Sequence record: MH791411.1
Length of the DNA stretch: 64,000 nucleotides
Direction: 5' to 3' (one strand)
Source: Escherichia phage Ecwhy_1
Below are positions 28,757 through 54,166 of the stretch, one piece after another. The translations under genes were made by a program, and so were the position numbers. Position 1 is the stretch's first letter, and each line of letters opens with the position of its first letter. Under the pieces are notes generated by a model. That model saw only the letters and a list, made by a program, of their open reading frames with translations. It searched no databases and had not been told where the DNA came from.

Positions 28757-29031
28757 CGATCAGTACACCTCAGTGGTTGGGTCATTTGATGAAAGTACAG
28801 CTTACCTCTGATTTCCAGTAGTAACTCAGCAATTAAGCGATTTACTTCTGGCTCTTGATAGTTTGTTCCTAAGAATACACCCATCTTTAACTCACGCATC
28901 ATAATCATTTTCTTACTGTGTTGAATTTCTGGGTTGTGATAGATTGTATTACGTTTGTGCGTAATTTTTGTCATACGCTCGGTATATTCATCTTTACTTA
29001 AATTGATCATTTGCATGTTCATCAACCTCAC
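28753..29031 (-). CDS. Fam-B minigene
   Basis: array member, LGTNYQEP. Confidence 0.55.
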   Translation of the reverse strand: MRLMNMQMINLSKDEYTERMTKITHKRNTIYHNPEIQHSKKMIMMRELKMGVFLGTNYQEPEVNRLIAELLLEIRGKLYFHQMTQPLRCTDR

Positions 29032-33164: not shown

Positions 33165-33409
33165 TTTGAATCTCCTAACTTTGTGGGCCGTCGCACCATT
33201 GCCGCCCTACGAGATACATTATTGCAGTACTGATATACTTTGTCAATACTTTTTTATTAATAGTTTTAGTTCCACCAGCAGATAGTTACTCACCGTTATT
33301 AACTATATATTTTGGATACACTTATGCACCCTGTGGGCTAGTTTTTGTCTATGCGTATATAATAGCAAAGGGACTGACCTGAGTCAATCCCTTTTTTTAT
33401 TCTTTTTTG

Positions 33410-39117: not shown

Positions 39118-39578
39118 TTTAATGTTTCCTTATCAGTGGTTGATGTAAGTATTATACTCGTTTACTTTCTATTGTCAAACTATTTTATCAGGGGAGTTTT
39201 TCGTATGTCTTACTCCTGGACTACTTAACGGGGTTACTTATTTCGTTCCCCGTCCTGATGTAAAACATTATACTTGATTCTAAGTACAATGCAAGTACTT
39301 TTTTAAAAATAGTTTTCAGTACTAGCCACCAGCAAACAATAGATACATTTATGCACCCTGTGGGCTAATTTGTTTCTATGCGTATATAATAGCAAAGGGA
39401 CTGACCGGAGTCAATCCCTTTTTCAAATATTTTTAAACTTCTTTCGGGTTGCGATATGTGATAGCGTTCGGGTACATTTGTTTAATGTTATTCCATGCCT
39501 GGTTAACATTATAACCACTTGATCGAATCAGTTGGTTATTACCGACACCTTGAAACACTACTTCAAATAAGAATTCTT

Positions 39579-46165: not shown

Positions 46166-46406
46166 TGTTTTGATTCCTTTGATTTGGAAGGAGAACCGTT
46201 TCCCCCTCTCGATGTAAAACATTATACGCTAATCTCTTAATCGTGCAAGTACTTTTTATTACTTTTTGCAAAATACTTTAAACGCTCTCAATCGCGTTCT
46301 TACAGCCTTAACGCCACCAGCTAGGGCAATGCATCAGATAATCAGTTTAATGCGTTAGAATCGTTTCTAGGCGGTGCTGGTGGCATGGTAAACGATAAAC
46401 ACAAAA

Positions 46407-46430
46407 AAGCCCACCGTTTAAGGTGGGCTA
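46407..46430 (-). terminator. rho-independent terminator
   Basis: GCCCACC ... GGTGGGC hairpin followed by T6 on minus strand. Confidence 0.65.
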
Positions 46431-46450
46431 GTGATTCAGTACTTTAATTG

Positions 46451-46933
46451 TTATGCTTCAACTTTGCGATGAGATTCGATCCATTCCTCGCGAGTCATAC
46501 CGCTGGCGTTAATCGCGTCCAGTACTACCGCAATGCAGTTACCACGCACCGGAATCAGATATTCTTCCCCGTTGTCCAGTACTACCGCTACGCGTTCCTG
46601 AATCCATTTTTTGGCTTTTACTTCTGGCTTGTCTTCCCCATACTTAACCGCCAGGGCTTTTTGTGCCATCTCTGTAACTACTTCCAGATCCAATCCAACT
46701 ACTGCCGCCTGAATACTTTCGATTGTTGCTTGTAGTTCTGCTTCACGGGCCGCCTTTGCCGCTTCAATTTCTGCCGCTTTATTTGCTTGTAGTTCTTTCG
46801 CAGTACTGTACGCGATGTTAAAATTATTGCGTACCGCTTTCATGGTATCGTTATCCAGTTCAGCCAGGATCTCAGCCGCGACGTTAGTTTCATTTGCTAC
46901 CAGTGCTTTGATGAATGATTTTACATTAGCCAT
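46451..46933 (-). CDS. hypothetical protein with Ala/Glu-rich helical segment
   Basis: trimmed to MANVKSFIK; terminator directly downstream. Confidence 0.5.
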   Translation of the reverse strand: MANVKSFIKALVANETNVAAEILAELDNDTMKAVRNNFNIAYSTAKELQANKAAEIEAAKAAREAELQATIESIQAAVVGLDLEVVTEMAQKALAVKYGEDKPEVKAKKWIQERVAVVLDNGEEYLIPVRGNCIAVVLDAINASGMTREEWIESHRKVEA

Positions 46934-47142
46934 TTTATAAATCCTCAATTAAAGTTTAGTTTACGTTTATTAGTGTATCAAAGTTTTCTCGACGTGTCCA
47001 GTTTTTCGTTCGACTTACTGGCGGTCTACTTAGTGCTCCCCGTCTTGATGTAATACATTCTACGCTTTTCTGCGGTAATGTCAACTACTTTCTTAAAACT
47101 ATTTTCAAAGTATCTCAGTACTACGATACTACAAAAACAAAA

Positions 47143-47160
47143 AAGCCCACCAGGTGGGCT
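47143..47160 (-). terminator. rho-independent terminator
   Basis: GCCCACC/GGTGGGC hairpin plus T-run on minus strand. Confidence 0.6.
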
Positions 47161-47166
47161 ATGTAC

Positions 47167-47397
47167 TTAATCAGTGAGTAAAATATTAAACACTTTACCA
47201 TTTAACGTTATTGGTGCACTGCTACCAGGCACAAGATCCGTTAGTATACCTGCAATCGCTTTATCATTGGCTACCTTTCCAGTGTCCAACAGTACTACAG
47301 TACTGATAAGATTAACGCTCGTTTCAATATCATAATGCACGGCGTTAAGTAGTTGTGTAGTACTGCTTTCGTTAAGTAAAACAATTCGCTTAGTCAT
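47167..47397 (-). CDS. hypothetical small protein
   Basis: 76-aa ORF with terminator downstream. Confidence 0.45.
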   Translation of the reverse strand: MTKRIVLLNESSTTQLLNAVHYDIETSVNLISTVVLLDTGKVANDKAIAGILTDLVPGSSAPITLNGKVFNILLTD

Positions 47398-47418
47398 GAT
47401 GTTACCCCGTAGTATCTA

Positions 47419-47718
47419 TCAACGGCAATTAATAACGCCGGTATGAGTTACTTTCTCGGTATCCATTACAGTGACCGAACCGCGTTTAGCACTGGCATCA
47501 TAATAAATTGTCGTGCTACCGTTTTCGTCTTCTTCATGGAACGGGCCGTTTTTAAATGCTTCCGGCTGGATCTCTAAATCCTTTAATACAATCTCGCCAG
47601 TTCTTTCATCGGTCATTGCAACAGTGCACTGAATGAATTTTTCACTACTTACATCTAATGACGCATTAACAGCGAAAGAGGAAACAGATAAAGCCAGGGC
47701 GATGATTGCAATTTTCAT
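47419..47718 (-). CDS. secreted/periplasmic small protein (signal peptide)
   Basis: N-terminus MKIAIIALALSVSSFAVNA: charged-hydrophobic-AxA pattern. Confidence 0.5.
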   Translation of the reverse strand: MKIAIIALALSVSSFAVNASLDVSSEKFIQCTVAMTDERTGEIVLKDLEIQPEAFKNGPFHEEDENGSTTIYYDASAKRGSVTVMDTEKVTHTGVINCR

Positions 47719-47802
47719 TTGATTATCCTTAGTTACCAGGGGAAACCGTTTCCCCTTGCGATGTAAAATATTATACAGTACTAAAAACTAATTGCAAGTA
47801 CT

Positions 47803-48039
47803 TTATGATTTTTTATAAAACATTTCAGCAGTGATATTTTTACCCGTTGGCTGTACTTTATCCAGAATTTTTTGATGCCCTGGTCGTCCAAAGGAATATG
47901 ATCCGTAAACAGTAAACCAGTAGTTACCCTCAGTGTTTACATGTACAGCACAATAAGGAACACCACGCGATTCATCACTAGTAAAGTGTGATACCGTTCC
48001 CGTTACATTCGCAGACGTTGATTTGATTTGTTCGACCAT
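47803..48039 (-). CDS. hypothetical small protein
   Basis: 78-aa ORF, cassette upstream. Confidence 0.45.
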   Translation of the reverse strand: MVEQIKSTSANVTGTVSHFTSDESRGVPYCAVHVNTEGNYWFTVYGSYSFGRPGHQKILDKVQPTGKNITAEMFYKKS

Positions 48040-48147
48040 TTTCTTATTCCTTAGTTACCAGGGGAACCGCTCCCCCTATGCAAAACATTATACGCGTTTA
48101 AAAACTAATTGCAAGTATTTTAATAAAAAGTATTTGAAAAATAGTTG

Positions 48148-48290
48148 TTGACAAGTGCATCCAGTACTGGCATAATTACTACATCAAGACGAAACAGTCA
48201 CTAACCCACCGGGTGCCGAGATCCGTCTATTAAATGATTCAGTACTGAAAAAGTAACGGGGAGTTATTATCTCCCCGTGTTGTTATTTTG
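48148..48290 (+). ncRNA. candidate small RNA / orphan plus-strand transcription unit
   Basis: TTGACA-N17-CATAAT promoter (48148-48176), no ORF, ends at bidirectional terminator hairpin CGGGGAGttattatCTCCCCG plus T-run. Confidence 0.3.
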
Positions 48291-48504
48291 TAAGGTATAA
48301 ACAGAAGTCGCCTTTATTTGCTACGCCGCCAGTGTAACGCGAGGAATAGTTAGAAACGTCCTGGACTTCTGCTATTACCAGGGTATCATCATTCAATTCG
48401 TCGCAGAAGCAAACGGCTGGATCTTGTACGCCGATTTTGTCGGCATGTTCCCGCATAGATTTAACCAGTGCTTCCAGTTGGGAAAGAGTAGTGATATTAG
48501 CCAT
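48283..48504 (-). CDS. hypothetical small protein
   Basis: trimmed to MANITTLSQL. Confidence 0.45.
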   Translation of the reverse strand: MANITTLSQLEALVKSMREHADKIGVQDPAVCFCDELNDDTLVIAEVQDVSNYSSRYTGGVANKGDFCLYLTK

Positions 48505-48588
48505 TTTATTTTCCTCATTACCAGGGAGAACCATTTCTCCCTTTGATGTAAACCATTATACAGTACTGAAAACTAATTGCAAGTACTT

Positions 48589-48777
48589 TTAATTAAATTC
48601 CATAAAATCATTTTCAACGTGCACAACAATCTGATTATTTTTAAAGGACGCAGAAAACTCTATACAATCATAAACCGCTTTTTCTGTTACCAGACTATGA
48701 GCACCAATCGGATTAATTGGGGATTGAATTGTTTCAATCTCGTTACCTTGTTCATTAACGATTAAAATATTAAACAT
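48589..48777 (-). CDS. hypothetical small protein
   Basis: 62-aa ORF, ATG verified. Confidence 0.45.
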   Translation of the reverse strand: MFNILIVNEQGNEIETIQSPINPIGAHSLVTEKAVYDCIEFSASFKNNQIVVHVENDFMEFN

Positions 48778-48816
48778 TGCCGTTACTCCTGGATAGTGTT
48801 AACTCGATATAAAGTA

Positions 48817-48999
48817 TTATACGCCTTTATTGCTTAGTGTCCAGTGATCACGCATCATACGCCCCGCACGATCCCAGCTAGTAGGCATGGGTATGCCTTG
48901 CAATTCGTTAGGGGAGATCTCGACCTCGATCCCTACATCAATAACAGTCATTCCAGCTTTCGCAGCTTGCTCGCGGATAACCTCAGATAATGTTGTCAT
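48817..48999 (-). CDS. hypothetical small protein
   Basis: 60-aa ORF. Confidence 0.4.
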   Translation of the reverse strand: MTTLSEVIREQAAKAGMTVIDVGIEVEISPNELQGIPMPTSWDRAGRMMRDHWTLSNKGV

Positions 49000-49073
49000 G
49001 ATTAAAGCTCCTGGATAGTGTTAACTCGATATAAAGTATTATACAGTACTGAAAACTAATTGCAAGTACTTTT

Positions 49074-49334
49074 TTAATATTGTTTGTCGTCGTCTTCCTC
49101 GATGAATTGACCGACGAAATGATCTACTTTCGCTTTGAGGCTTTTATAATCTTCTTCTACTTCCGTTAAACGTTCCTGGTAGTATTCCAATGCTTCAAGA
49201 TACGCCGCCTCAGCAGTTTTTGCACGCATAGCTAAATTCATTCCACGCGTTTCATCAAATAGCCAATAACCATCGGTGCACTGGCTAATAGATAATGACT
49301 TGCTTAGTACTGTATAGCTAATTACTTTACTCAT
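49074..49334 (-). CDS. hypothetical protein
   Basis: 86-aa ORF with terminator-like hairpin downstream. Confidence 0.45.
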   Translation of the reverse strand: MSKVISYTVLSKSLSISQCTDGYWLFDETRGMNLAMRAKTAEAAYLEALEYYQERLTEVEEDYKSLKAKVDHFVGQFIEEDDDKQY

Positions 49335-49391
49335 TAGATAACCCTCAGTAAAGGCGGGAACTATTACCCGCCATTATCTCAGTACTGAATA

Positions 49392-49631
49392 TTACATTCC
49401 AACCATTGCAGCACGGATCGCAGTAGTGCTATACTTAAAGCCGTCCGGCGTTGTAGTAGTACCGTTGGCTTTTAATCTGCGGTACATACATTCCGCAGCA
49501 ATATCTTTAGTTCTACTTTGTGCGATGCAACTTTGAGCAAGCCGATACAATGACTCACCGTTATTAATCCAAAGGCTTACATTCCAATGAGTTTTGTTTT
49601 TGTGTCCGTTGTAAGTTTTAGTACTAGCCAT
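49392..49631 (-). CDS. hypothetical protein (paralog of 51432..51671)
   Basis: shared GHKNKTHWNVSLWINN ... TPDGFKYSTTAIRAAMVGM. Confidence 0.55.
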   Translation of the reverse strand: MASTKTYNGHKNKTHWNVSLWINNGESLYRLAQSCIAQSRTKDIAAECMYRRLKANGTTTTPDGFKYSTTAIRAAMVGM

Positions 49632-49721
49632 TTTTAAATCCTCGTTTGAGCGGGGAACCACTCCCCGCCTCGATATAAAGTATTATACGCTTTTAAACTT
49701 AGTTTGCAAGTACTTTTTAAA

Positions 49722-50333
49722 TTAATATTCGATTGATTCCACTACGCCATCAATAACATTGAATTGATACTCGTTACCCTCAATCAGTGCCGTAATGTTT
49801 TCAGTAGTGAATTGATCCTCATATGCATTCTCTAAATCACGGTACAACTTGCGGGACAATTCACGAATAGTTTCAGTGAGTAGTTCCTCAAGCTCATTAA
49901 CTAACGTTTCTTGTTTTGCGGTTAAATCAGTGTAAGCCGATTCAATGTACCCGCTTACAGTATTCTCATGCGAGTAGTGGGAGTGCGAACGTTTTACACT
50001 CATCGCCAAATCATCTTCATTCAGCAAGTGACGGATTGAGCGATACTTAGTTAATGCTCTTACCTTGCGTAAAAACTTCACTGCGTCAACGTGGTCAGTA
50101 CTGATTGATGCACCGTCACCCTGGGACCAAAAACCACTGAATTGTATTTCAGCGTCATTAATGCCATATTCCGGTAGTACTGTTTCTTTATAGTATTCAA
50201 TTTCACTTTCAGAAAAATAATTGTCGTTTGAGTTTTTTTCACGTTCCCGAACCAGTTCGATAGCTGACGTTTGTTGTTCTGCGTTCAATTCAGAAAAAGC
50301 CATAACATAAGTAGTAGTAGTGATAGTTTTCAT
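49722..50333 (-). CDS. hypothetical protein
   Basis: 203-aa ORF; FSGFWSQGDGASI motif of unknown affiliation; tandem promoters upstream. Confidence 0.5.
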   Translation of the reverse strand: MKTITTTTYVMAFSELNAEQQTSAIELVREREKNSNDNYFSESEIEYYKETVLPEYGINDAEIQFSGFWSQGDGASISTDHVDAVKFLRKVRALTKYRSIRHLLNEDDLAMSVKRSHSHYSHENTVSGYIESAYTDLTAKQETLVNELEELLTETIRELSRKLYRDLENAYEDQFTTENITALIEGNEYQFNVIDGVVESIEY

Positions 50334-50557
50334 TTTGTAACCCTCATTCAGTAGTTGATGTAAGTATTATACGCTTTTAAAAACATTTGTCAAACTATTT
50401 TATCAGGGGAGTTTTTCGTGTGCCTTACTCCTGGGCTACTTAACGGGAAGTTACTTATTTCGTTCCCCGTCCTGATGTAAAACATTATACGCCTTTAAAC
50501 ATAGTTTGCAAGTACTTTTTAAAAATAGTTTTCAGTACTGAATAGTAAAAAAAAGTA

Positions 50558-50586
50558 TTGACAGCATTATCAAGTACTGGTATAAT
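50558..50586 (+). promoter_or_regulatory. orphan sigma70-type promoter TTGACA-N17-TATAAT
   Basis: plus strand, no ORF downstream; faces minus-strand promoter at 50702-50730. Confidence 0.5.
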
Positions 50587-50701
50587 ATACCCCATGACAA
50601 CAGCTAACCCACCGGGTGCACAATTGTAACTATACTAAACTAATTTTTCTATAGATACACTCCCGCACCCTATGGGCTACGGCTTATCTGCCAATGAATA
50701 C

Positions 50702-50730
50702 ATTATGCCAGTACTGACAAAATAAGTCAA
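50702..50730 (-). promoter_or_regulatory. sigma70-type promoter TTGACT-N17-CATAAT (convergent partner)
   Basis: read on minus strand; leader contains AGCCCATAGGGTGC. Confidence 0.5.
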
Positions 50731-50760
50731 TACCGGCAATTGTAAAGATTTGTAAACTGC

Positions 50761-50997
50761 TTATACTGCAATCGCGTCCAGGCTATAATAATAATAAGTG
50801 CCGTATTGGTGTACTTTATTACCTTTTATTTCAGTACTGAATGAATCCGAACGGTTTGCATATGATGTTAATTTAAAGTACTTTGATTTGCTGATACGTT
50901 GCCATACACCACAGATCCGCTGTAAGTAAGTAGTTTTATTCGTGGTAGTATCTTTTACGGTTTTAACTTCAGTCATATACATATTAGTCATTTTCAT
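50761..50997 (-). CDS. hypothetical small protein
   Basis: 78-aa ORF. Confidence 0.4.
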   Translation of the reverse strand: MKMTNMYMTEVKTVKDTTTNKTTYLQRICGVWQRISKSKYFKLTSYANRSDSFSTEIKGNKVHQYGTYYYYSLDAIAV

Positions 50998-51078
50998 TAC
51001 TCCAGGTTATAGGCGGGAAGAGTTCCCGCTCTCGATGTAAAACATTATACGCCATTAAACATAGTTTGCAAGTACTTT

Positions 51079-51342
51079 TTATTCAAGTACTGCAATCTTT
51101 TTAGTACGGTACACGGTCACGCGGTTGCCCTTTCGGTCGAGCTTTATTTCTACCACTCGACGCGATACACTATCGGGACTTTTTAAGGCCGCTAACCAGT
51201 ACTGTAATGATCTGGCGGTACTACGCTTTACAATGGCCCAACGTTTACCACGTTCCGATTGTACGCCCATATCTTTAAACGTTGCCCCGTCCTGGCGTGC
51301 GGCGATCCGAGCTTGTTCACGCGTCGCAAAATACTTAATTTT
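51079..51342 (-). CDS. hypothetical protein (paralog of 37669..38073)
   Basis: trimmed to MKIKYFATREQ; shared motifs with 37669..38073. Confidence 0.5.
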   Translation of the reverse strand, partial: KIKYFATREQARIAARQDGATFKDMGVQSERGKRWAIVKRSTARSLQYWLAALKSPDSVSRRVVEIKLDRKGNRVTVYRTKKIAVLE

Positions 51343-51431
51343 CATGCTGTTGCCCTTATCGTTGGTGTATGAATAAAACACTATTATAAAGTACTATCGC
51401 AAAAAAATGATAGTACTTTAAATAAATTCTA

Positions 51432-51671
51432 TTACATTCCAACCATCGCCGCACGGATCGCAGTAGTGCTATATTTGAATCCGTCCGGTGTTTTATCTTG
51501 TCCAGTCTGTTCTAAAAATAACATCATATGACGGGCCGCATCATTGCGATTAGTGCTATCGTTAATAAAGTCCTGGGCCAACCGATACAATCCCTCATCG
51601 TTATTAATCCAAAGGCTTACATTCCAATGAGTTTTGTTTTTGTGACCTAAGAACATTTTTGATTTAGCCAT
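51432..51671 (-). CDS. hypothetical protein (paralog of 49392..49631)
   Basis: trimmed to MAKSKMF; C-terminus identical to paralog. Confidence 0.55.
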   Translation of the reverse strand: MAKSKMFLGHKNKTHWNVSLWINNDEGLYRLAQDFINDSTNRNDAARHMMLFLEQTGQDKTPDGFKYSTTAIRAAMVGM

Positions 51672-51764
51672 TTTTTTAATCCTCTTATATAGTGGGGAAC
51701 TATTCCCCACCTGATGTAAAACATTATACGCCATTAAACATAGTTTGCAAGTACTTTATTAAAC

Positions 51765-52127
51765 TTATTTGTAAATTTTGCCACTGTCAGCCCATACCAG
51801 GAAACGAGGCATATTATCCCATGCATCTTGTTTTAAGTTTAAGCCGTGCAATTCCTCAGTTGTTGCCATCCCTGGTACTGGCTTACTACACACCGCGAAA
51901 TTTTCGCCCATATACTGATAAACCATCGTCAAATCATTTGAGATCATTATATGGATCATTGAATCCAGCATCAAAGTAGCGGCGTATTGTTCACGCTTAA
52001 GCGGCAACATTGCAATAAGTTCCCGATAAGCTGCAATGTGAATTTTTACAGTTTCAGCCGGAAGACCTTTCATCTCATCGCGGAAGTTTACCAGGTTAAG
52101 CATGATTTTATTGATTTGAGTCGCCAT
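51765..52127 (-). CDS. hypothetical protein
   Basis: trimmed to MATQINKIML. Confidence 0.45.
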   Translation of the reverse strand: MATQINKIMLNLVNFRDEMKGLPAETVKIHIAAYRELIAMLPLKREQYAATLMLDSMIHIMISNDLTMVYQYMGENFAVCSKPVPGMATTEELHGLNLKQDAWDNMPRFLVWADSGKIYK

Positions 52128-52490
52128 CGTTTTAATCTCTCTTAATGTGTAGCGGGAAGTGTTCCCGCTCTCGATGTAAAACATTATACGCTTTTATCAG
52201 TACGGTGCAAGTACTTTCTACAAATACTTTTAAAATAGTTTTCTTTCTATATAGGAGTACTATTATTCAGTACTGCAATCATCCAGGGGAACTATCTTTC
52301 TATATAGGAGTACTATTATTCAGTACTGAATCAATCCACTAAATCATCCCTATACCCCGTAAAACGTCCTCAGACGCATTCTAACGCATTAATACACATA
52401 AGCTATACATTTGCACCATTCCAATCATTCCAGGGCTTTACAGGCCGTTTAAACGCGTTAAATTATTTTCAATTATTTTGTTTTTAGGTA

Positions 52491-52518
52491 TTGACTTGAT
52501 CCTGAAAAAGCGTATAAT
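52491..52518 (+). promoter_or_regulatory. orphan sigma70-type promoter TTGACT-N16-TATAAT
   Basis: plus strand in ORF-poor region. Confidence 0.45.
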
Positions 52519-52716
52519 TACTACATAGACGCGAGAAAGCGGATACCCCAGGGGGTGGGAAGATCCGTCCAAAATTCAAGATATAAAAAAAGGATACACT
52601 CCCGCACCCTAGCAGGTAAACGCACTTTCTCAGTACTGAAATATAGTACCATAGTCCGGCCCAGGATAGCAAGCAAATTAATTAAAACTTTTTTGCTTCC
52701 AGGGTATTGCTTTATT

Positions 52717-52744
52717 TTTCCAGTACTGTATAATAGTTCCATCA
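52717..52744 (+). promoter_or_regulatory. orphan promoter (TTGCTT ... CAGTACTG-TATAAT)
   Basis: plus strand; leader contains AGCCCACCGGGTGC. Confidence 0.4.
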
Positions 52745-52956
52745 AGTCGAGAAAGACTCAAGCCCACCGGGTGCATAGTTACGCCCAAAATTCAGTACTG
52801 AAAAAATTTTTAAAAATATCCGGCCAGGCCGTTGACATTGCCCCCAGTTTATAAGATAATGATTCCAGATTCAGAAAAATCTAACACCAGATACTGCGGG
52901 GAAACTATCCCCACGCGGTAGGGGAACTATTGGAAAAAACAAAATAAAATTTTGAT

Positions 52957-53100
52957 TTAGCCGTCTATACTTCCAGACGTGTAACCATCTAGCCGTTTAG
53001 CCGTCCAAACGTCTAGCCATCCAGCCATCCAGAAATCTAGCCGTTTAGCCGTCTAGATGGATAGCCATCTTTACTTCCAGACTTCTGGAGGGCTAGACAT
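52957..53100. repeat. 8-bp periodic tandem repeat array (about 18 units, consensus TAGCCGTC)
   Basis: in-register 8-mers tagccgtc/tagccgtt/tagccatc/cagccatc ...; flanked by TACTTCCAGAC repeats and CCAGAcTTCTGG palindrome. Confidence 0.7.
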
Positions 53101-54166
53101 ATCTACGCCCAAAATCCATCCAGGGTAACTACGCCCAAAATCCGTCAGTACTATACCATAGATCTATCTTTTGAAAGGGAGTATTCAGTACTGCCATCAT
53201 AGCCCTCACTATGTTACCCTAGGAGGATGAAGACCATCATGTAGTACTGAATACTGTTAGAGGGAATCCACCAGCTTGTGCTGGTGGCATAATGCTTTAG
53301 ATTAAAATCAGTACTGACACCATTCTGTTAATATCAGTACTGTTATTACGATTTTCATATGAGGTTCAAAAAGATGTACCACCACAGGAGGAACTATCTT
53401 TTCTGTACTGTCTCACGACAGGAGGTAGAGTAAATGAATTGTTCGCAGCAACTCATCACCCTATGTAGAACATTATACAGTACTGAATCATAAAGTCAAT
53501 AACTTTCTTTCATCTTTCAGTACTGATATTCTTGAGAACTACCCGACTACAAACATCATTATATCCCACAAATCATAAACGTCCCAACGTAAATTTCAAC
53601 TTTCGAAGATCCAACTTTTATTTCATAGGTACTCCAAAATTTTTAGGATCGAGATTTAGGATGGAGTACTAACCAACTTTTTGCTGGAGCCTCAAGGGGT
53701 AATGGAATTTTACCCCGAAGGGTAAAGGGGTAATTGAAATTAAGGTGAAAGTAATAATTCAGTACTAATCATTGCGTGATTACTTTTGATTACATTTGAT
53801 GTAATTTGCAAAATGGAAAAGGAGCTTGGAAACTACAAAGTACGGCAGACTTCCTCTGCCTACTTAGTGGGATATCGCCACCTTCAGTACTGAATACTTT
53901 TAGGGCAGTACTGAATCCTTCCCTAGCATTCTTGAGTAATCTTGTCTATAATAATCAGTACTGAATCATATATAATCATTCTGTGATTCTACGGTGCTCA
54001 TATAAATGTTTATATATGATTACTTATGACTACATATGATTACGGGGTTTAGCCTGGGGAGAATCCTAGTGATCGCATTTGTCCAGGCTGAATTTTAACA
54101 ATTCTTCTAATTGTTAAAGCCTGTCCAATGCTTTCCCTGCGGAGCTTCCCCTGTCTATATGTTGAA

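Follow-up and report, generated by a model that had tools for sequence, protein, structure and literature searches.

Facing promoters in the terminal repeat of Escherichia phage Ecwhy_1 belong to a repeated family of predicted short RNA units

Background

Convergent-promoter modules of temperate phages, such as pR/pL of coliphage 186, choose between two sets of genes. Here we present a computational analysis of two promoters that point at each other at positions 50558-50730 of a 64,000-nucleotide stretch of Escherichia phage Ecwhy_1 (sequence record MH791411.1; the whole stretch is called the window). As in 186, the sigma-70 promoters converge across about 100-150 bp, and polymerases leaving them must collide or occlude one another. 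In contrast to 186, the window pair has no genes of its own, both promoters would make the same kind of small RNA, and the arrangement is repeated within the genome and conserved across genera. Each member of the pair consists of its own near-consensus host sigma-70 promoter and a short RNA that lacks an open reading frame (ORF) and carries an optional 5′ hairpin. We refer to such a promoter with its RNA as a unit.

The units also recall RNA elements of early phage transcripts. Lambda-type nut sites are composed of boxA and boxB. Units share with them a hairpin with a covarying stem and a purine-rich loop beside an invariant linear element in early transcripts. They depart from nut in the reversed order of the two parts, in a linear element other than boxA, in a hairpin that about a quarter of them do without and in an orientation independent of the genes; no boxA-like sequence (CGCUCUUUA) lies between 60 nt before and 150 nt after any of the 10 window units. 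The put RNA of phage HK022, which binds the beta′ zinc-binding domain and suppresses termination (PMC9378689), is likewise an element just after a strong early sigma-70 promoter, with two stem-loops and highly conserved residues. Units differ from put in that they match it neither in sequence nor in structure, measure about 50 nt against about 70, and in many copies face away from operons and are stopped. A position upstream of, and co-oriented with, a terminator-containing operon is found only for gene-sense single units.

Two further comparisons come from small RNAs. The units resemble CsrB-type sponges and Qrr-type siblings in having many copies of a short invariant motif, which suggests titration or redundant action on one partner. 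Whereas the CsrB-type repeats lie inside one RNA, the units are separate genes with their own promoters, restricted to a phage terminal repeat. RNA I/RNA II of ColE1 and CopA/CopT of R1 resemble the window pair in their overlapping convergent transcription and their complementary structured RNAs; neither unit RNA, however, is a primer or an mRNA, and their complementarity looks like a side effect of two similar units placed face to face.

Jumbo phages of the RaK2 group are under development for therapy, and their early programme is annotated almost entirely as 'hypothetical protein'. To that programme the unit family adds a non-coding part, conserved and highly repeated, that annotations miss or miscall as small coding sequences (CDSs).

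Results

The facing promoters and their predicted RNAs

An initial annotation of the window had placed TTGACA-N17-TATAAT on the + strand (50558-50586) face to face with TTGACT-N17-CATAAT on the - strand (50702-50730). A promoter scan confirms both, and the locus can be divided into the following features.

50558-50586, + strand: sigma-70 promoter of the + unit, TTGACA-17-TATAAT, 12/12, TG-extended -10, A-tract upstream
50730-50702, - strand: sigma-70 promoter of the - unit, TTGACT-17-CATAAT, 10/12, TG-extended -10
50594-50644, + strand: predicted RNA of the + unit, subclass without the 5′ hairpin P1; model match 50578-50644, 44.6 bits; leader AUGACAACAGCUAA 50594-50607, core CCCACCGGGUGC 50608-50619, hairpin P2 GGGUGC/GUAACU 50614-50631, A/U tail
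50645-50695, - strand: predicted RNA of the - unit; model match 50640-50705, 51.2 bits; P1 GGC-AGAUAA-GCC 50692-50681, core CCCAUAGGGUGC 50676-50665, P2 GGGUGC/GUAUCU 50670-50653, tail
50632-50652, no strand: A/T-rich spacer of 21 nt between the two P2 hairpins, presumed to be the zone where converging polymerases meet

The -10 ends of the two promoters are separated by 115 nt (50587-50701). This interval had been described as free of ORFs, which holds: no ORF of at least 37 aa touches it, four ORFs of 20-36 aa clip its edges and none lies downstream of the + promoter. From the -10 positions, transcripts are predicted to start at about A50594 (+) and about A50695 (-), in agreement with the earlier estimate of an overlap of about 100 nt between transcripts that read through in full. 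On neither strand is there a terminator-like site within 50587-50701, and thus no intrinsic or bidirectional terminator; the P2 hairpins of the pair are weak (three G·U pairs) and followed by tails of mixed A and U.

The DNA here is AT-rich and promoter-like matches are common, with 42 in 10 kb where 33.4 ± 5.1 would be expected. The promoter pair alone is therefore weak evidence, and the motif and its context are stronger.

A repeated family with an invariant core

Each RNA of the pair carries a core, CCCACCGGGTGC at 50608-50619 in the + unit and CCCATAGGGTGC at 50676-50665 in the - unit. The motif shared by the two transcripts had been read as CCCAC.GGGUGC; its presence in both stands, and its consensus is corrected to CCCAYNGGGUGC. 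Searching the window for CCCANNGGGTGC with one mismatch allowed returned 10 copies where 0.75 are expected, a number reached by 0/100 shuffles, and all 10 lie 20-30 nt downstream of a strong promoter and have no ORF. We accordingly define the family by its CCCAYNGGGUGC core, with the -10 of a sigma-70 promoter ending 20-30 nt before the core and YRYCY 6-8 nt after it, and both units of the 50558-50730 pair have this layout.

A covariance model built from 49 units was used to search 19 sources, of which 13 (the window and 12 related loci) contain a total of 91 units, exactly 10 of them in the window. Accepted units score roughly 27-68 bits, most of them above 35 bits. The same arrangement is present in Klebsiella phage RaK2 (Alcyoneusvirus), in Pectobacterium phage CBB and Cronobacter phage GAP32 (Mimasvirus) and in Salmonella phage Munch, as well as in metagenomic relatives that include a presumed Eneladusvirus contig (cf. 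Yersinia phage fHe-Yen9-04). Of the unit promoters, 87/91 score at least 9/12 and 78/91 at least 10/12, and the distance from the -10 end to the core is 20-22 nt in units without P1 and 25-30 nt in units with it. For the window pair, the model E-values of about 9e-7 (44.6 bits) and about 2.5e-8 (51.2 bits) indicate consistency rather than independent evidence, because both units are in the model alignment. The locus is thus not the singular device that it had been taken for, but one instance of a repeated family that forms 18 pairs in the window and its relatives.

Comparative evidence for a structured RNA

From 5′ to 3′ a unit comprises the start site (a conserved CAU), the optional P1 hairpin, the core R-CCC-AYN-GGGUGC, 6-8 nt and YRYCY. 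P1 is short and closes a purine-rich loop (for example GGC-AGAUAA-GCC, AGCA-AGAACA-UGCU and GGAG-GCGAAA-CUCC), and per-unit folds give at least 12 different stems. Across 89 sequences, all four of its pairs show 30-36 double-sided changes and 0/500 shuffles reach the observed covariation, in an alignment that was fitted to the model and so favours structure. About a quarter of the units, including the + unit of the window pair, lack P1 and have a short A-rich leader instead.

The second hairpin, P2, pairs GGGUG with YRYCY. Its cells are paired in 90-91 % of cases, compared with 34-66 % when the partner is slid along the sequence, and in its five strong pairs the only exchanges are G-C/G·U and U-A/U·G, that is, transitions. 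Such wobble-preserving changes are meaningful in RNA of the transcribed strand only. An alternative hairpin, P0, joins RCCC to GGGU across a loop of 3-4 nt; it is 99 % paired, and most folds of single sequences prefer it. Such folds suggested a long-range helix linking the leader to the 3′ arm, which was rejected: it shows no association across units, with 23/200 permutations as good and a flat contingency table.

Conservation among orthologues and coding potential

Window positions 50300-51100 share 95-99.8 % identity with Asteriusvirus jumbo coliphages (121Q, PBECO4, G17, fEgEco12 and others), and the whole pair is conserved in 35 Asteriusvirus records. In eight orthologues both promoters and both cores are essentially invariant: the + promoter varies only at the base before the -10 and the - promoter not at all. 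The leaders, by contrast, switch on either side between types with and without P1, changing in length by 7 nt, and the loop dinucleotide varies. The half that holds the - unit is also conserved at the DNA level in jumbo phages of Klebsiella, Pectobacterium, Cronobacter and Salmonella.

These leader swaps with their 7-nt indel exclude the small CDSs that are annotated at the pair, such as gp270 of 121Q. That 61-aa CDS (L028:1480-1665) is not an ORF in the window and is not conserved, and a leaderless 11-codon ORF beginning at A50594 was rejected on the same ground. Further small 'hypothetical protein' CDSs are annotated across the unit pair in A4 and WPEC3 and are not conserved between orthologues. 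No ORF at the pair is conserved among orthologues as a protein-coding gene would be, and the small CDSs in GenBank over the unit pair are probably false gene calls.

Head-on pairing and transcript boundaries

Head-on pairing is a conserved layout. Convergent pairs number 18 and contain 36/91 units, the remaining 55/91 being unpaired; among units less than 400 nt apart there are no divergent arrangements and one tandem. Facing promoter-like elements (8-12 of 12) are found in 18/18 pairs, with 115-147 nt between the -10s, the window pair being the tightest. Starts are offset by 62 nt in 7/18 pairs (the window pair, three of CBB and three of GAP32), and another cluster lies at about 73-85 nt. The convergent layout recurs up to three times per genome. 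In the window, a second pair with the same 69-nt geometry sets the + core at 52547 against a decayed copy at 52614-52591.

About one third to 40 % of the units are oriented against the genes. In a terminator scan of the window and four annotated relatives, 24/27 gene-sense single units have no terminator within 170 nt, and most gene-antisense units are paired or have an intrinsic terminator about 25 nt after P2.

The read-through RNAs of the window pair are predicted to fold as long hairpins of -28.8 and -42.7 kcal/mol (z -4.6 and -5.4). Partners, however, are not more alike in their variable parts than non-partners of the same genome (identity 0.51 vs 0.55, p = 0.87). The long hairpins therefore look like a by-product of facing family members, and selection for an extended palindrome or a long hairpin in the pairs was rejected.

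In widely spaced pairs of the relatives, with about 80 nt between starts, we noted a central Fur-box-like palindrome AATGATAATCATT that matches GATAATGATAATCATTATC at 14-16/19 positions by eye (L005:22364-22443 and 28757-28843; L002:27929-28080; also L006, L009, L010, L022 and L026). Going by its sequence, it could serve as a roadblock formed by a host protein or in iron-dependent control. The 50558-50730 pair has no Fur box, and elsewhere in the window there are only matches to the 13-mer with two mismatches.

Restriction to the terminal repeat

The unit family is restricted to the direct terminal repeat of about 21 kb that carries early genes of RaK2-like jumbo phages. In vB_Ec-M-J, the DNA matching 50300-51100 falls inside an annotated 21.5-kb direct terminal repeat. 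For fEgEco12, a repeat of 20,993 bp and the termini have been confirmed experimentally (PMC13070987). By mapping both repeat ends of fEgEco12 onto the window, we place the repeat-equivalent part at about 31,912-53,870 and the physical left end near 53,870. All 10 window units are inside this part, and whole-genome pattern scans of RaK2, 121Q, GAP32 and CBB gave matches confined to one region of about 20 kb or to both repeat copies. With about 10 unit genes in each repeat, a packaged genome would carry about 20. Small - strand genes, each with its own promoter, are arrayed across the region and read inward from the left end near 53,870.

Searches for known relatives

Within the limits of the resources searched, the unit family is undescribed. 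Rfam gave no match at gathering thresholds in the whole window and no known RNA family at E ≤ 10; the best sub-threshold score in 50400-50900, to unrelated families, was 16.6 bits, the threshold being 46.7. Neither tRNA nor tmRNA genes were detected. An origin in the host or a plasmid, or mimicry of a host RNA, was rejected, as BLAST found no match in E. coli genomes or plasmids. In 185,579 bacterial and archaeal species genomes the 70 pattern matches are about the number expected by chance, score at most 29.7 bits, lower than nearly all accepted units, and extend little beyond the searched pattern. The genome papers of CBB and fEgEco12 describe promoters and terminal repeats and not these units, and in the searchable literature we found no paper with the motif in a relevant context and no transcriptome of the RaK2-like group.

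Discussion

How the locus may work

The explanation that we favour, and consider somewhat probable, is that the locus holds two independent immediate-early small-RNA genes placed head-on, each stopping the transcription of the other, with products that act in trans. On entry of the DNA, host RNA polymerase would fire both promoters at once. Judging from polymerase footprints, with the open complex covering DNA to about +20 and the elongating enzyme reaching about 15 nt ahead of its active site, each polymerase would meet the facing complex, bound or oncoming, after about 60-70 nt. That distance would be just enough for the structured part of 45-50 nt to clear the RNA exit channel. The facing partner would replace a terminator, so that the gene-antisense copy is kept out of the - strand genes and the gene-sense copy is kept from reading on. 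The unit RNAs would then act in trans as abundant early products, most plausibly as a decoy or ligand for a factor common to Enterobacterales hosts or to these phages. We propose a decoy or ligand acting in trans, which would fit better than a cis leader because the copies are many, their promoters strong, the core invariant across host genera and the orientation indifferent.

A number of observations weigh against this explanation. The units lack a canonical terminator and may be read through, and gene-sense single units, which would read into the next gene, could equally be leaders. Two gene-antisense units, window 52733 and GAP32 15962, lack a partner and have no convincing terminator either. 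The same GGGU is needed by both P0 and P2, although the two hairpins may form in succession. For single units, predicted folding does not surpass that of shuffled sequence (z -0.3 to -2.3), so the case for an RNA rests on the comparative evidence and not on folding energy. Neither excess complementarity to rRNA nor a host homologue was found, and the long read-through hairpins, as modelled, could matter in their own right. Pairing to rRNA or to the tRNAs of rrn operons was rejected as a function, the best duplexes (-20 to -21 kcal/mol) being worse than those of most shuffled cores.

Alternative explanations

Mutual interference between the polymerases very likely contributes to the working of the locus, and the geometry on which the initial annotation based a transcriptional-interference switch is sound. 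As a decision device, with the weaker promoter silenced by the stronger one or the RNAs degraded after pairing with each other, the locus is harder to understand. Both promoters are strong, they converge from starts about 100 nt apart and they are asymmetric (12/12 against 10/12), and the fully complementary read-through RNAs are predicted to fold or pair strongly. Neither promoter, however, has a regulated gene downstream: none follows the + promoter, and the gene that comes next on the - strand (49722-50333) is equipped with promoters of its own, at 50511-50484 and 50393-50366. The alternative proposal of a sense/antisense regulator and its target fails on the family data, in which both RNAs belong to one family, 55/91 members have no partner and complementarity between partners does not exceed the family consensus; a single genome can contain the layout as many as three times, which speaks for a packaging rule and not for a decision point. 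We regard a switch or antisense pair as rather unlikely, only slightly more so than a cis-acting leader of the HK022 put or lambda nut kind, whose nascent hairpin and core, by binding the transcribing polymerase or loading a factor onto it, would let it pass the many terminators between early genes and which we also hold to be unlikely. Such a leader would account for the promoter-proximal position with two short hairpins and an invariant element, as in put, which measures about 70 nt, has two stem-loops and lies close to its promoter (PMC9378689). It would also account for the purine-rich loop and freely covarying stem of P1, reminiscent of boxB, and for the mostly missing terminators between gene-sense single units and the next gene; invariance across phages of different host genera fits a conserved host target such as RNA polymerase. 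The gene-antisense units, one third to 40 % of the total and mostly bounded by a terminator or a partner, are the opposite of what an antiterminator needs. In addition, the family model has no match in the whole HK022 genome with filters off at E ≤ 10, no boxA-like sequence lies within 150 nt of any window unit, and about a quarter of the units do without P1.

The inverted cores around a 21-nt A/T-rich centre could also be seen as an imperfect palindrome that works as DNA, that is, as an origin, a recombination or cruciform site or a site for a dimeric protein, with transcription serving only to activate it. The terminal-repeat location, the near-perfect symmetry of the arms of about 25 bp in GAP32 and the Fur-box-like palindrome at the centre of the wide-spaced pairs of relatives would suit such an element. 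We nevertheless judge it improbable, since most units are single, partners are not selected for symmetry, the core keeps a fixed distance and orientation relative to the promoter, and variation in P1 and P2 preserves G·U pairs that have meaning only in RNA of the transcribed strand. That the hexamers arose by chance in AT-rich intergenic DNA and have no function is very improbable indeed: promoter-like matches are only modestly above expectation (42 vs 33.4), but the family recurs 91 times with its promoters in register, P1 covaries, units are conserved across genera, and promoters stay invariant among orthologues while leaders change.

If the favoured explanation of two head-on small-RNA genes acting in trans is taken further, the units would represent a new class of RNA, an extension that we put forward tentatively and with some doubt. 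About 20 promoter-equipped copies per packaged genome, lying in the DNA that is presumably transcribed first, would flood the cell with an invariant structured motif of 12 nt that would bind and neutralise or redirect one factor conserved in Enterobacterales (RNA polymerase, an RNA-binding protein or an immune sensor), the head-on pairs producing terminator-free short RNAs by collision. If they are indeed abundant early products, the unit RNAs are candidates for RNA-based host take-over or anti-defence, and the face-to-face layout would be a natural system in which to study head-on polymerase collision as a way to end transcription. The family model itself can serve as an annotation tool for unit loci and for locating the early region of the terminal repeat in new genomes.

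Other units and sequence elements of the window

Besides the 50558-50730 pair, the window contains the following units and associated features.

33301-33367, - strand: family member, gene-sense, single, 59.4 bits
36053-36119, - strand: family member, gene-sense, single, 67.9 bits
39328-39394, - strand: family member, gene-sense, single, 59.3 bits
41663-41729, - strand: family member, gene-sense, single, 53.8 bits
43333-43399, - strand: family member, gene-sense, single, 65.1 bits
48175-48290, + strand: family member, gene-antisense, single, 54.8 bits; ends at an intrinsic terminator at 48256-48278, predicted RNA about 105 nt
52517-52583, + strand: family member, gene-antisense, facing a decayed partner, 47.6 bits
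52614-52591, - strand: decayed partner of the 52547 unit; core CUGCUAGGGUGC (CCCA lost), P2 followed by U7, terminator-like site at 52610-52591
52733-52799, + strand: family member, gene-antisense, single, 48.4 bits
50712-50743, - strand: hairpin GCCGGTATTGAC-TTATTTT-GTCAGTACTGGC, containing the -35 of the - promoter of the pair and lying after the stop of the upstream - strand ORF 50761-50997

The decayed partner at 52614-52591 escapes the family model at E ≤ 1. The hairpin at 50712-50743 reads as a terminator and promoter combined, its role as a terminator being suggested by its sequence. The same design (GGGGTTGAC-TTCG-GTCAGCCCC-TTTTG..TATTAT) is found at units 33337, 36089, 39364 and 43369 and in relatives, and promoters of gene-sense units lie in terminator-like hairpins with the -35 in the 5′ arm and the -10 in the U tract. 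The hairpin-embedded promoter would be a compact module in which one transcript is ended and the next begun. A subset of gene-sense units (RaK2, CBB and GAP32) has a conserved AATCTTTACAA element 10-20 nt upstream of the -35, which in the window is at 50733-50752 and reads GTTTACAAATCTTTACAATTG.

The 8-bp palindrome CAGTACTG occurs at 69 sites in the whole window, where 0.62 are expected (for example 50533-50540, 50709-50716 and 50832-50839). It lies directly against the -10 within promoter spacers, follows P2 of many units at a distance of about 10-15 nt and forms part of the gene promoters as AGTACTTGCA-N16-TATAAT; AGTAC is present in the spacer of 29/91 unit promoters. CAGTACTG is probably the site of a DNA-binding regulator.

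Early genes at 46170-52222 have in common a repeated - strand cassette of promoter and 5′ untranslated region, in the order AGTACTTGCAA-N16-TATAAT, ACAUCGAG, a GGGGAA..UUCCCC hairpin and a ribosome-binding site. This cassette is a second conserved leader family, separate from the CCCAYNGGGUGC units.

Chi sites (GCTGGTGG) are enriched about 25-fold, with 12 in the whole window against 0.46 expected. The terminal-repeat part holds 11/12 (span 33272-53287), nine are on the - strand, and two, at 39326-39333 and 33272-33279, lie just 3′ of family units. The enrichment points to RecBCD protection at the ends of the genome. About 0.8 kb from the inferred genome end, at 52962-53113, nine overlapping copies of a direct repeat follow one another, mostly at a spacing of 8 bp (CGTCTAGC / CATCCAGC ...).
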